NCBI GenBank assembly: GCA_963729715.1 | Contig: CAVSPA010000013.1 | Coordinates: 1-28,104, forward strand | From: an uncultured delta proteobacterium | Lineage (GTDB): Bacteria > Desulfobacterota > Syntrophia > Syntrophales > UBA2185 | Length of the DNA stretch: 28,104 bases | Reading direction: 5' to 3' | Shown: positions 18,001 through 21,000 of the stretch, in pieces | Layout of the letters: every line of letters starts with the position of its first letter | How positions within the stretch are numbered: the stretch's first letter is position 1 | Made by a program: the position numbers

Positions 18001-21000
18001 CCCCGCAATCAACAGAACGACGCTGATGGGCTCATTTGCGGATGCATCGATGAAGTGGGCATCGCTTGGCCCGGAACGTTCTTCCCGCTCATCCATGATA
18101 GTCTCACACAACATGACGCGCCAAGTTCCATATGAAGCGAATCCAAACCACGCGTCCCGGCTGCAATGTCCCGGCCCACGCCTTTGAGACTTGCCTGAAA
18201 GGCCGGAATGGTTTATATGAGAGCCGATATGAAGCATAAAGCCGTTTAACTTTGTCTCCACTATTTCAAGGGAACTATATAAGAATGAAAATGGGCAATT
18301 CATGTAAAGACACCGATATTTTAAATATCATCATGGAATTCGCATCAGATGGAATATTTATTGTCGATAAAAATAGTATCATCGTGGGAATGACTAAAGC
18401 TTACGAGAGAATGAGCGGGATAAAAAGGGAGGAGATCATTGGTTTGCCGGTCGCTACCTTATTGAACATGGGATTATCAAAAGTACCTGTTCTGGAAATT
18501 ATTGAAGAAAAGAAACCTCTATCGGATATAATAACATACTCCCGAACAAACAAGGAAATTCTGGTAACCGGTATTCCCATTCTTGATGAAAAAGGTGATT
18601 TAAACTACGTGGTACTTTGCTTCCGGGACCTCTCCGAATTAAATGCTCTGCAAAAAGAAATATCTAATTCGCAGAAATTGATACAACAGTATAAGAATGA
18701 ACTTGACGTATTGAAACAAGATGCTCCCCATTCTGATATTATTGCCAGAAATCCTAAAATGAAAAGGGTCCTCGAATTAGCAAGAAGATCGGCAGGCGTT
18801 GATTCAACTGTTTTAATATTGGGTGAGTCAGGGGTCGGCAAGGATTTAATCGCCAGATATATTCATCAACACTCCGACAGAAGCATAAAAGGAAAGTATA
18901 TAAAGATCGATTGCAGTTCGATACCAGAGACGTTGCTGGAGTCGGAATTATTTGGATATGAAAAAGGAGCTTTTACGGGTGCGAGAGAAACCGGCAAGCA
19001 GGGCCTTTTTCAAATGGCAGAAAAGGGCACTCTTTTTCTCGACGAAATCGGCGATTTACCTATACAGCTTCAAATGAAATTGCTCAATACCTTACAGGAC
19101 AGGAAGATAAACCCTCTCGGCAGTCTGAAATCCATTGATGTGGATGTAAGAGTTCTGGCTGCAACAAATAAAGATTTGAGAGCATTGGTAGAAAGCGGAT
19201 CATTTCGCAGTGATTTGTTTTATAGACTTAATGTTATTCAAATAGACATTCCACCCCTTAGAGAAAGAAAAGAAGAAATCATCCCCCTGGTGTTTCATTT
19301 CGCAAAAAAAATATGCTTGAAGTACGGCATAGAAAAGGACTTCTCATCGGAGGTATTGAGGCTTTTTGAAAATTATGAATGGCCGGGAAATATCAGAGAA
19401 TTGATAAACGTCGTTGAACGGTCAATCGTATTGTCTACCAATAATACTATTCAATTGCAGGACATTATGGAATTGAGTCCTATTTTCGCCAAGAAGACGC
19501 ATCCTCCATTGTCAGCAAGGAAGAACAAAGCATTAAAAGAAGCATTAGATCAGGCTGAACGCAACTTGATATTAGATACTTTGAACGAAAAGAAGTCATT
19601 AAAATTGGCCGCAGAGGAACTCAAAATAGATATTTCAACACTTGTTAGAAAAAAAAGGAAATATAAAATCAAATTCGACGGCAGTTTTGACTGAGTTATG
19701 ATAGTATTGGCGGGCTAGATAGAAAATATAAGGTGGCAGGATCAATCGCAGGTCAATGCGAACTATGAAGAGATTACCCCAGATTCATAGTGATAAATGA
19801 TGTGAAGAGGATAATCTAACTAGTTCACTTGAAGGAGGCAGACGATGAGTTCCACAAATGATGTTCGGTCATCATACACAAGGCGTAGTTTTCTGCGTAC
19901 TACAGTAAGTGTTGCATCAGCAGGATCAGCATTGTTATTGCTTTCTGATGACATTATTGCGGGCAATAAGCCGCCGCAATCAAAGCTGCGTACATACAAT
20001 GGCAGCACCGATCCCTATCCGATACCCTGGCTGGATAAGAACGGCAGCCATAACCAGCCGGCAGGCCCGAACTTGGAACCGTCGCACATTTTCCATTTTA
20101 AAGGGCGGGTTGCCCGCTGCGCCGGTTTCGTCGGTATGGGTACCGACAATAAAGGCAACCGGATTGCCTTCGGCACACCAACAACCGATTACGGATACAT
20201 GCAGGGAGAATACTTTGCCGGGCGCACTCCTCAGACAGGCACATTCACTCATATATGACTCACTTTGTTCCAGGGGCAGGCTGCCCCTGCAAACCAGATT
20301 CACGATTTTCATCCCCCTATTTCACCTTCCGGGTTGTACTGGGTGGTTCCGGTTCCTGAAGGGGGACTGATCATTAGTCCCGACGGGCAGACAGTAACAC
20401 TTGAGATGAAAAACATTGCGGTTGTCGATCAACCGAGGTGGCCCGCCCTTGATGCCGTCGGCATGCCGGCTGTTATGAGTTTTAAGATGATATGGGAGGC
20501 GACGGACGAAAAAATCATTTACGACGATCCGCAGAAACAATTTCGAGTGGAAGGCTATCGCGCTACATCACAGCTTGAGGCGCAAGTTAAAGTTCCATCA
20601 ATAGGCTTCTCATGGAAATCCGACCCCCTATCAGAATCGCATGCCAATTTTGCGATCATCGGGAATGAAGTGAATGGACGTTACTACAGTCCGATGAAGT
20701 AATCTGTTATTTGGTTGCCGCTTTCGGCATGGGGGCTAATAAGCGGTTCGACTGGAGTGCGCGAAGCGAGTTTCTTACTCAGCAGAACTGTTTTGGGCCA
20801 TCTCTTTTTCGATATTGAAAAGCCCCTGAAGATAAGGGGTTTCTGAGACCGATTTCAGGCCCTTTTCATTTTGACCACTCACCACACGTGCCAATATAAC
20901 TGTGTGACTATCTGGATGCAAATCTTTCAAGCAAACCATCCAGGCACAAGTATAGCCCTTGCCGGAACCCATCGGGCCCTCGCCCATGTGTAAGTCAGTC

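Follow-up and report, generated by a model that had tools for sequence, protein, structure and literature searches.

The DNA between positions 19845 and 20702 on the forward strand of the window (the whole 28,104-nucleotide stretch from an uncultured delta proteobacterium that was analysed here) very probably holds one gene, encoding a 285-residue selenoprotein with a twin-arginine (Tat) signal, within which a UGA would be read as selenocysteine (Sec) through a bacterial SECIS element (bSECIS). Judged by the conservation of the codon and of the hairpin that follows it, this internal UGA almost certainly encodes Sec. The family is absent from the domain libraries and the selenoprotein catalogues that were checked, and it is widespread in soil and peat. 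A first-pass annotation had proposed a single gene with UGA as Sec, whose product has a twin-arginine signal and a beta-barrel and falls in no known family, and each computational test run here agrees with that proposal.

A single reading frame

The gene (19845..20702, + strand) consists of 285 codons followed by TAA, and is preceded by a Shine-Dalgarno-like AAGGAGG, found by inspection of the sequence at 19832..19838 (+ strand), 6 nt 5' of the ATG. It replaces the two calls that are made under translation table 11, 19845..20258 (137 aa) and 20265..20702 (145 aa). When the frame was re-read, these adjacent calls proved, as had been suggested, to be one 285-codon frame in which the TGA at 20256..20258 (+ strand) is the sole internal stop; its conservation argues that this codon specifies a selenocysteine, U138. 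The gene is present as a single copy in the source genome, where a genome scan gave one match, scored with '1 TGA'.

The table 11 calls could also be taken at face value, as two separate genes or as one broken gene, with translation of a 137-residue product stopping at the TGA and the sequence beyond it either translated independently or in decay. The second open reading frame can indeed be started at a TTG at 20265, and most database entries for relatives are half-length pieces (the N-terminal pieces P0045 and P0064, when aligned, stop at ...THI, which bears out the earlier observation that database proteins end at the TGA). However, the frame beyond the TGA remains open for 136-150 codons in all 81 sequences compared, and nucleotide diversity at the three codon positions is 0.16/0.12/0.53 downstream of the TGA versus 0.11/0.09/0.52 upstream; the downstream frame is open and under protein-level selection. 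Since the earliest possible in-frame start lies at least 25 codons past the TGA in 53 of the 81 sequences, and those codons are under purifying selection, the conserved stretch cannot be explained by a separate downstream gene. Decay likewise does not fit a stop that is kept, as TGA and at the one codon, by 159 of 160 loci from different phyla, and both halves build one barrel in the AlphaFold2 model described below. Furthermore, TGA is the only stop found at the site, whereas the family genes end in a mixture of all three (TGA 41, TAG 24, TAA 16; n=81), which also argues that TGA has not been reassigned. Two genes or a broken gene is thus a barely credible reading, and the frame is treated below as one gene. 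The RNA library contributes one 208-nt contig, 19816-20023, which stops short of the UGA and comes from a library that may contain DNA; it is therefore no evidence that the gene is translated or that its transcript extends past the UGA.

The codon at the proposed selenocysteine site

A scan of species-representative genomes returned 254 stretches that encode a relative, and the codon was read in the best 80 of the 254. In this independent scan TGA occupies the site in 80 of 80 loci, from at least six phyla and in the context H-[I/L]-U-L-T-[L/I]-F, in agreement with the claim that relatives keep TGA at exactly that codon. A second, distant subfamily (26-32% identity) was followed in metagenomes by means of patterns derived from a three-sequence alignment; among its best 80 metagenome loci, beyond which lie 390 further matches, TGA is present in 79 and TGC in the remaining one (L100). 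No TGG is found in the 160 loci of the two subfamilies together. Scans of unbiased genome samples, phylum by phylum, gave '1 TGA' in 6/6 matches among 401 Acidobacteriota genomes and in 2/2 matches among 401 genomes of the source phylum; because the latter set comprises the source genome and 400 others, the rescan arrives at the same figure as before, a single carrier with one TGA among the 400.

The statement that no Cys form exists does not survive, because Cys is encoded by the TGC of locus L100 and is present in protein P0250. Both of these belong to the distant subfamily, and none was seen in the source gene's own subfamily. In addition, Ser (P0122) and Glu (P0123) are read at the site from protein sequences, which indicates that some relatives manage without a chalcogen nucleophile. 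Given these Cys, Ser and Glu forms, the description of the family as Sec-obligate has to be weakened: substitutions exist but are rare, and the site, as read from the sequences, appears to be almost always Sec.

A bSECIS-type hairpin

A hairpin of the bSECIS type lies at 20271..20289 (+ strand), where 20271-20278 pairs with 20282-20289 to form an 8-bp stem around a GGC apical loop (20279-20281), with a folding energy of -13.7 kcal/mol. The hairpin begins 12 nt past the UGA, and 20 nt separate the UGA from the apical loop. Conserved, compensatory pairing had been reported for this structure and is upheld here; the stem is 8 bp instead of 7, and its start is 12 instead of 15 nt past the UGA. Within the source subfamily 94.3% of 600 cells are paired, whereas sliding the 3' partner leaves no more than 52.5% paired, and none of 500 shuffles attains the observed pairing or covariation score. 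Compensatory changes are seen at pair 17-33 (GC 43, AU 29), at pair 21-29 (AU 41, GC 18, GU 8), and at pair 23-27 (AU 43, CG 29). The distant subfamily has the hairpin in the identical register, with 76.2% of cells paired versus at most 52.2% when slid. Of the 'invariant GG' that had been ascribed to the loop, the first G is indeed invariant, but the second position varies a little: 69 of the 73 distinct sequences have G there, and 4 have U.

The bSECIS model given in PMC13188914 specifies an apical loop of 3-9 nt with G at its first two positions, an upper stem of 4-16 bp, a distance of 16-37 nt from the UGA, and a minimum free energy of -7.5 kcal/mol or lower, and the source hairpin (GGC loop, 8 bp, 20 nt, -13.7 kcal/mol) satisfies this description. 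When a strict version of that published model, with zero mismatches, was applied at the UGA, 69/81 genes of the source subfamily and 54/79 of the distant subfamily passed, compared with a background of 578/17010 (3.4%) and 782/16339 (4.8%), respectively, at the other in-frame positions of the tested genes. The failures (12/81 and 25/79) arise from single mismatches. The Cys-form locus L100, with AAA as its loop, fails the test. A 71-nt stretch folded around the UGA shows no unusual stability (z = -1.31), and a search of Rfam over 19700-20800 gave no model near its gathering score.

Selenocysteine machinery and decoding of the UGA

The machinery for Sec in the source genome is complete: tRNA-Sec (76.2 bits), selA, selB and selD are all found, each of the four above its cut-off, and selD itself contains a TGA. 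The alternative to Sec insertion is that the UGA is decoded as something else, either by near-cognate read-through (Trp, Cys, Arg) or by a dedicated opal suppressor. Candidates for such a suppressor are the tRNA-Sec-like tRNA(Cys) ('selC*') and the allo-tRNAs, which PMC5389517 describes in deltaproteobacteria, Nitrospirae and Acidobacteria, all of them carrier phyla; moreover, full-length database calls have W or G at the site, as the first-pass annotation had recorded, since gene callers place these residues there. Against this, of three among the tRNA-Sec-like matches of the source genome that were given to ARAGORN, one is called tRNA-SeC (tca) and the others tRNA-Ser, and the sole sense codon among the 160 loci is TGC, with TGG lacking. 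The hairpin, which stands at SECIS distance and has the loop G, is what SelB requires, whereas plain read-through needs none. Of the 80 carrier genomes, 50 were tested for selA and 47 of these have it above cut-off, which points the same way, but this co-occurrence is weakly informative because selA is also found in 162 of 201 randomly drawn Acidobacteriota (81%; the sample includes the carrier G019 as well as G074, G099 and G202, which are flagged unpublished, and without those three the count is 159/198). On balance, decoding as an amino acid other than Sec is quite improbable, and Sec insertion is the reading followed below.

Architecture of the predicted protein

The N-terminal signal region (residues 1-40; 19845..19964, + strand) contains T-R-R-S-F-L-R at residues 12-18, with the arginine pair encoded at 19881-19886, followed by the hydrophobic stretch TVSVASAGSALLLL. 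The Tat consensus is S/T-R-R-x-F-L-K at the N terminus followed by a hydrophobic region, and the source protein conforms to it. R13 and R14 are each at least 90% conserved in an alignment of 46 rows. The Pfam model TAT_signal (PF10518) matches 14 of the 46 members (best E 5.9e-4), and it gives no match to the source protein at E up to 10. The signal region is unstructured in the AlphaFold2 model.

Next comes the conserved N-terminal segment, PYPIPWLDKNGSHNQ, with the motif P-Y-P-I-P-W-L-D-K-N-G-S-H-N-Q at residues 57-71 (20013..20057, + strand). Residues P59, I60, P61 and H69 are retained in the distant subfamily as well, and among 150 distinct proteins H69 is present in 147 and P61 in 146. 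Contrary to the earlier statement that this stretch is not modelled, it is modelled with pLDDT 79-88.

The remainder (residues 85-277; 20097..20675, + strand) is predicted by AlphaFold2 to fold as a closed beta-barrel, with strands at residues 85-101, 106-125, 128-142, 151-156, 183-195, 207-228, 233-250 and 266-277 that are encoded partly before and partly after the UGA. The model had been called moderate; with the deeper, 46-row alignment it is good (mean pLDDT 83.9, pTM 0.77). It thus predicts with confidence one closed barrel that spans the UGA, in which U138 lies on strand 128-142. A candidate active site can be proposed from the strand register, not from coordinates: the invariant D115 would face U138 from the neighbouring strand, with H153/D154 on the strand that flanks U138 on its other side.

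Distribution and gene neighbourhood

The family is far larger than had been reported, since it extends to the 254 genome stretches and to the second subfamily, for whose patterns an estimated ~1200 stored metagenome stretches are matches. The gene is accessory and has spread horizontally through bacteria of soil and peat, which represent at least six phyla, and by sequence comparison the proteins make up a superfamily with two or more subfamilies.

Directly upstream of the selenoprotein gene is a gene for a sigma-54-dependent activator (PAS, AAA+ and HTH by Pfam; 18252..19694, + strand), which is given here as context only and is not conserved as a neighbour: no more than 4 loci have the neighbour cluster to which a window ORF belongs. 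A sigma-54-like sequence, TGGCA-N7-TCGCA, at 19734-19750 was set aside as expected by chance, similar sites being present in 29 of 100 shuffles. The absence of conserved neighbours, which had been noted earlier, has to be revised, because a DUF302 gene recurs in 12 of 81 loci. Every other family is limited to at most 8 of the 81, and the clusters that seemed to recur more often turned out to consist of halves of the gene itself or of frames that overlap. For the distant subfamily there is no recurring neighbour beyond those of near-identical contigs, and no DUF302 was found among its neighbours. A DUF302 domain is reported within sox clusters in PMC5037610, and the DUF302 neighbour is the only new hint toward a candidate metal or chalcogen function.

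Proposed mechanism, candidate function and significance

The conservation of codon and hairpin is consistent with the following scheme. A ribosome that meets the UGA at 20256-20258 would find, 12 nt farther along the mRNA, the hairpin acting as a bacterial SECIS; SelB would then deliver Sec-tRNA(Sec), U138 would be inserted, and 147 more codons would be translated. The twin-arginine signal T-R-R-S-F-L-R argues that the protein is probably folded in the cytoplasm and then exported to the periplasm via Tat. One side consequence of this route may be that the truncated 137-residue termination product, being unfoldable, is kept from export.

As a best guess, the protein would serve in the periplasm as an enzyme or a carrier, with Sec as its reactive nucleophile or redox centre. 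Redox or nucleophilic catalysis is given somewhat less than an even chance; binding of a soft metal or metalloid is possible but doubtful; and sulfur or selenium transfer of the persulfide type is considered unlikely, as is, to the same degree, something else altogether. A broader reading, put forward tentatively, is that these proteins may form an unrecognised superfamily of Tat-exported periplasmic selenoenzymes with a barrel for which relatives cannot be detected; in it, Sec on a beta-strand would face an invariant Asp, and His and Asp would lie on the adjacent strand. They might catalyse a periplasmic reaction that Cys almost never supports (1/160), have spread horizontally through at least six phyla, work in part with a membrane-anchored DUF202-DUF302 protein, and use Tat as quality control. 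If true, this would point to sulfur, selenium or soft-metal chemistry of a new sort outside the cytoplasm.

Current annotation pipelines split the gene in two or call one half of it, so that the database protein is missing or truncated. Recognising the gene would correct the annotation across the genome and metagenome stretches counted above, and would enlarge the known selenoproteome of Acidobacteriota, Nitrospirota and other soil phyla by one family. To our knowledge, export is unusual among bacterial selenoproteins. The predicted export is joined here by other unusual traits, namely a fold that is not thioredoxin-like, the lack of UxxC/CxxU, and a site at which Cys is almost never used. If its chemistry were worked out, the family could explain the need for extracytoplasmic selenium in soils and peat.

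Comparison with known families and folds

Searches of Pfam-A and of NCBIfam release 20.0 returned no families for the source protein at E up to 1, as the first-pass annotation had claimed, and the only Pfam domains found in 46 family members are signal-peptide models. A search of the PDB by sequence, with either the single protein or the 46-row profile, gave rows at chance level and a NapA signal peptide (E 0.79), and Foldseek gave nothing in the PDB at E <= 0.001. The best scores with VIA-align were Z 9.4 (9nh2_A), 8.8 (1p4t_A), 8.4 (6kbc_A), 8.3 (7e5t_A) and 7.3 (2ich_B), for alignments of 110-142 residues with rmsd 3.9-5.9 and identities of 3-10%, a Z range that is common for unrelated barrels. 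The earlier description of the fold as generic therefore holds, and no function can be drawn from it.

Two groups of barrels share the up-and-down closed architecture and a similar size. The first comprises the calycin/lipocalin-like barrels (CrtC/AttH, kievitone hydratase, the Diels-Alderases CghA and Fsa2, and YceI). In the ESM Atlas the Ser form P0122 gives leads to CrtC/Lipocalin_9 (0.87), DUF2804 (0.86) and the calycins, all of them below the 0.9 bar of the Atlas; for the calycin/lipocalin-like group (CrtC, AttH, Lipocalin_9) Z is 7.3 to 2ich_B and 5.0 to 7a0q_A, and none of the 46 members has a Pfam match to it. The second group comprises the 8-stranded outer-membrane barrels NspA, OmpW and OmpA, with Z of 8.0-9.4 over 127-142 residues at 4-9% identity and no sequence-family match. 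An integral outer-membrane barrel would not be expected to carry a twin-arginine signal.

According to PMC13188914, about 119 prokaryotic selenoprotein families are catalogued and new ones appear each year, and so the present protein may be a real selenoprotein whose family has already been described under another name (in Haft and Tolstoy 2025, in supplements, or in RefSeq annotation). The rows examined in Table 1 of PMC13188914 all carry Pfam, NCBIfam, TIGRFAM, cd or PANTHER identifiers, however, and a scan with the Pfam, NCBIfam and TIGRFAM models, which covers all but the entries with cd or PANTHER identifiers only, gave no match to the families in that table. This agrees with the library searches above; furthermore, each source name recorded for a relative reads 'hypothetical protein', and a full-text literature search, outside the review and BSepDB supplements, yielded nothing fitting. 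An earlier description is thus improbable, and the family is regarded as new to the catalogues checked. Most selenoprotein families have a thioredoxin-like fold or a UxxC/CxxU motif, as stated in PMC13188914, and the source protein has neither.

Other selenoproteins resemble this one in the manner of their discovery or in their location. GOS_B, GOS_C and the deep-Sep families DG, DW and DF are also orphan hypothetical proteins, which were found only by a conserved TGA, Sec/Cys pairs and SECIS prediction (PMC12013277; PMC13188914). These now have the NCBIfam models NF041374, NF045500, NF049953, NF041197 and NF049942 (Table 1 of PMC13188914), none of which matches the source protein. Many Cys homologues are reported for the deep-Sep families in PMC12013277, in contrast to the single Cys locus among 160 here. 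The GSU2204 / MtrB-PioB outer-membrane selenoprotein (NF041027) is, as listed in Table 1 of PMC13188914, another beta-barrel selenoprotein outside the cytoplasm; that family is of the CXXCH-containing MtrB/PioB type, whereas the source protein lacks CXXCH and has no match to NF041027 at E up to 1.

Among bacterial selenoproteins decoded through a SECIS hairpin within the coding region, the alpha subunit of periplasmic formate dehydrogenase (FdhA/FdnG) comes nearest. FdnG is a Tat substrate. Unlike FdhA/FdnG, the source protein is small, has neither a molybdopterin nor an Fe-S domain, matches no Pfam or NCBIfam family, and forms a predicted barrel with no recognisable cofactor motif, in which Sec would lie in a beta-strand and not beside a metal cofactor. 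The two nevertheless have in common a twin-arginine signal and an in-frame UGA with a coding-region stem-loop behind it that carries G at its first loop positions, and in both Cys takes the place of Sec in rare variants.

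The reading frame and its in-frame TGA

The gene at 19845-20702 (+ strand) is, with high confidence, a genuine selenoprotein gene. On translation it yields one 285-residue frame that ends in TAA and has the TGA at 20256-20258 as its sole internal stop, as the first-pass annotation had proposed, and an AAGGAGG box can be read in the sequence 6 nt upstream of its ATG. Under table 11 the frame is split into ORFs 19845..20258 (137 aa) and 20265..20702 (145 aa).

Relatives were collected by a scan of one genome per species, which gave 266 pattern matches, 254 of them encoding a relative. 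The best 80 of these 254 come, by record title, mostly from Acidobacteriota; the other carriers are Nitrospirota, Syntrophaceae, Syntrophorhabdales, Verrucomicrobia, a betaproteobacterium, a member of the Myxococcaceae and a member of the Dormibacterota. All 80 loci have TGA at the same codon, in the context H-[I/L]-U-L-T-[L/I]-F, so that the earlier claim that relatives keep this codon holds in a species-genome collection that had not been used to make it.

The split gene call could reflect two genes or one decaying gene. This reading is ruled out because the TGA is kept, because the downstream frame is open and selected, and because a nearby start is often missing. In the 80 genome loci plus the window, the frame stays open for 136-150 codons past the TGA in every sequence (81/81), and 53 of the 81 lack an in-frame ATG, GTG or TTG in the first 25 codons past it. 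Diversity at the three codon positions is 0.16/0.12/0.53 after the TGA versus 0.11/0.09/0.52 before it; the downstream codons thus bear the signature of purifying selection at the protein level, including where no start is present. The true stop of these 81 genes is TGA in 41, TAG in 24 and TAA in 16, and TGA is therefore an ordinary stop in the carrier organisms.

Sec and Cys forms

Searched exhaustively with HMMER, 1.84 billion representatives yielded 486 matches at E <= 0.001, mostly half-length pieces. In six aligned distant full-length proteins the residue at the site is S (P0122), E (P0123), W (P0125, P0186 and P0198) or C (P0250). Three of these, P0186, P0198 and P0250, in which the motif WLDKNGSHNQ is missing, form a distant subfamily with 26-32% identity to the window protein. 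A metagenome scan with their alignment gave at least 600 matches, at least 470 of which encode a relative; the total is estimated at ~1200 stored stretches. Among the best 80 of these relatives the aligned codon is TGA in 79 and TGC in one (L100), and none has TGG; in the database proteins the W is thus very likely an artefact of gene calling.

The family has a classic Sec/Cys pair, and the earlier statement that there is no Cys form does not stand, given TGC in L100 and C in P0250. Non-Sec forms are rare, L100 being the one whose DNA was seen. In that locus (2527-2586, site codon 2527-2529), the sole Cys-form locus among the 80, the motif is C-I-C, in which another Cys stands two residues ahead of the Sec site; P0250, the other Cys form, lacks this extra Cys.

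A probable SECIS hairpin downstream of the UGA

In the window a hairpin, CCAGGGGCA-GGC-UGCCCCUG, begins 12 nt past the UGA. Over an ungapped alignment of 81 sequences (75 distinct), 94.3% of the 600 cells for its 8 pairs are paired; shifting the 3' partner by 1-3 columns lowers this to 34.7-52.5%. Neither the pairing nor the covariation score was equalled in any of 500 shuffles, a count that is not a probability because the sequences are related. Pair 17-33 switches between Watson-Crick types (GC 43, AU 29), as do pair 21-29 (AU 41, GC 18, GU 8, UA 1) and pair 23-27 (AU 43, CG 29). These switches link a base whose change alters the amino acid (Gln/Arg, Gln/Pro) with a synonymous third base several codons off, a coupling for which protein constraint gives no reason. 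A GGC or GGU loop occurs in 69 of 73 distinct sequences; the other 4 carry GUU or GUC. The distant subfamily has the hairpin in the same register, with 76.2% of cells paired versus at most 52.2% when slid and at least four pair types at 21-29.

The bSECIS model set out in section 5 and the Fig. 2 legend of PMC13188914 was applied in a strict form that allows zero mismatches. At the UGA it is passed by 69 of 81 sequences of the window's subfamily and 54 of 79 of the distant one, against 3.4% and 4.8%, respectively, of other in-frame positions in the same genes; the failures are single mismatches rejected by the no-mismatch rule. The window's own element, at -13.7 kcal/mol, has an 8-bp stem and carries its GGC loop 20 nt from the UGA. 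L100, the Cys-form locus, fails the strict model; its loop is AAA and its stem is eroded.

Selenocysteine machinery

The window's genome has tRNA-Sec (76.2 bits against a cut-off of 47; ARAGORN call tRNA-SeC (tca)), selB (387.7 bits) and selA (606.7 bits). Its selD (G000:C12:74564-75493) contains one in-frame TGA, and its selenophosphate synthetase is thus itself a selenoprotein. Among 50 carrier genomes tested from the 80 loci, 47 have selA above the cut-off; of the remaining three, one has a fragmented selA and two have none (one of these a 1.8-Mb MAG). Co-occurrence with selA discriminates weakly, because it is also present in 162 of 201 Acidobacteriota genomes drawn evenly, a count that includes the carrier G019 and three genomes flagged as unpublished, G074, G099 and G202 (159 of 198 without those three). 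In the carrier G020, selA lies in four adjacent pieces in differing frames (C18:28745-30141), probably through assembly frameshifts or a broken gene.

The predicted protein

The window protein has T-R-R-S-F-L-R at residues 12-18, followed by a hydrophobic stretch, and the twin arginines are each conserved at 90% or more in a 46-row alignment that draws on both subfamilies. Pfam TAT_signal matches 14 of the 46 family members, the window's own protein not among them. The twin-arginine motif of distant-subfamily loci (L108:3001-3897 and L136:3001-3849 are examples) is preceded in frame by a conserved stretch like H-A-H-F-W-E-R-A, and the signal peptides there may therefore start well upstream of RR.

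The AlphaFold2 model built from the 46-row alignment has a mean pLDDT of 83.9, a pTM of 0.77 and 178 residues at or above 90, with disorder confined to the signal region. It predicts a closed barrel of long antiparallel strands over residues 85-277, with U138 in strand 128-142. As this barrel spans the UGA, strands from both sides would be needed for one domain.

Residue conservation was assessed in 150 distinct proteins (80 of the window's subfamily, 70 of the distant subfamily). F85, G87, G97, G99, D115, P157, G163, W166, D195 and W217 are present in all 150, and position 138 is Sec in 149 and Cys in one. L139 and G121 follow (149/150), then H69 and M119 (147), D154, E275 and N277 (146) and H153 (143). 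Judging from the strand register and the two-residue turn 126-127, D115 should face U138 on the neighbouring strand; by strand register, H153 and D154 would lie on the strand at its other side.

Distribution and gene neighbourhood

In evenly drawn genomes, searched with a profile that reads through stops and counts them, the family occurs in 6 of 401 Acidobacteriota (including the carrier used as centre) and in 2 of 401 from the phylum to which the window belongs (including its own genome), each match with one TGA. G844, a single-contig genome of the same genus that is 99% complete, lacks the gene. Proteins from Nitrospirota MAGs share 85-88% identity with the window protein, and one from a Verrucomicrobia MAG shares 79%. 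The gene is rare, missing from a close relative and highly identical across phyla, a pattern that points to probable horizontal spread. Window 12000-28000 looks like variable or acquired DNA, since it has no synteny with G844, encodes a phage-type integrase (24564-25403) and is uneven in GC (0.36-0.56).

Only one neighbour recurs: 12 of the 81 loci encode a DUF302 protein, often with a fused DUF202 (described as a membrane domain), at a distance of at most 1.2 kb in 11 of the 12 and with no fixed side or strand. Five such loci are L027:6851-7261, L052:5100-5939, L056:6843-7688, L059:5316-5951 and L075:5037-5915; seven others complete the 12. The adjacency is far beyond chance, because five of those genomes hold just 1-2 DUF302 genes each. 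No DUF302 was detected among the 80 loci of the distant subfamily or in window segment ~13000-27000. A passage in PMC5037610 notes DUF302 genes between soxA and soxB of sulfur oxidisers and speculates on a role in periplasmic polythionate oxidation; this is a lead, and just a lead, toward sulfur or chalcogen chemistry.

In the window the selenoprotein gene follows a sigma-54 activator gene, with DsrC-like and aldehyde:ferredoxin oxidoreductase genes ~2 kb away; none of these three neighbours is conserved over the 81 loci. The upstream row at 14739-17705 starts with a small ferredoxin-like ORF (weak Fer4_10 match) and continues with the aldehyde:ferredoxin oxidoreductase (15140-17086) and the DsrC-like protein (17325-17705); a sodium:solute symporter, a metallo-beta-lactamase-fold protein and a cupin precede it. 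Just past the activator gene, 95 nt upstream of the ATG, TGGCAGGATCAATCGCA (19734-19750) resembles a -24/-12 promoter; a match like it arises by chance in 29 of 100 shuffles, and its spacing is one base over the consensus. Downstream lie a Fib_succ_major-domain protein (22403-22966) and a choloylglycine-hydrolase-family (linear amide C-N hydrolase) protein (26664-27761), both unrelated to the selenoprotein. In the 80 distant-subfamily loci (L100-L179), one ORF cluster (cluster 0) has 171 members, more than two per locus; some of its ORFs lie 1-2.4 kb ahead of the site, on the same or the opposite strand, so that part of these contigs may carry nearby paralogues.

Comparison with known families and folds

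The read-through protein has no match in Pfam-A or NCBIfam 20.0 at E <= 1 or among PDB sequences at E <= 10. A 2026 review (PMC13188914) catalogues 119 prokaryotic selenoprotein families, each with a domain identifier; none of the catalogue's Pfam or NCBIfam models, the two kinds that the scan covered, as distinct from entries with cd or PANTHER identifiers only, is matched by the window protein or by 46 members of its family. By its outline and abstract, the Haft and Gwadz preprint covers the SAO and HgcA/HgcB families alone, nothing like the family appears in the text passages compared from deep-Sep and BSepDB, and full-text searches on exported or soil selenoproteins gave nothing fitting. 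By sequence, the gene would thus represent a new selenoprotein family as far as the Pfam/NCBIfam comparison reaches, set apart by its predicted export, a domain without detectable relatives, near-exclusive use of Sec, and a wide but sparse soil/peat distribution.

Foldseek gave no match to the predicted barrel at E <= 0.001, and VIA-align gave generic barrels only, at Z values that the tool itself calls common: a Legionella porin (Z 9.4), NspA (8.8), the Diels-Alderases CghA and Fsa2 and their relatives (8.2-8.4) and an AttH-like protein (7.3). For the Ser-form homologue P0122, the Atlas lists CrtC/Lipocalin_9 and DUF2804 at 0.86-0.87, below its bar of 0.9.
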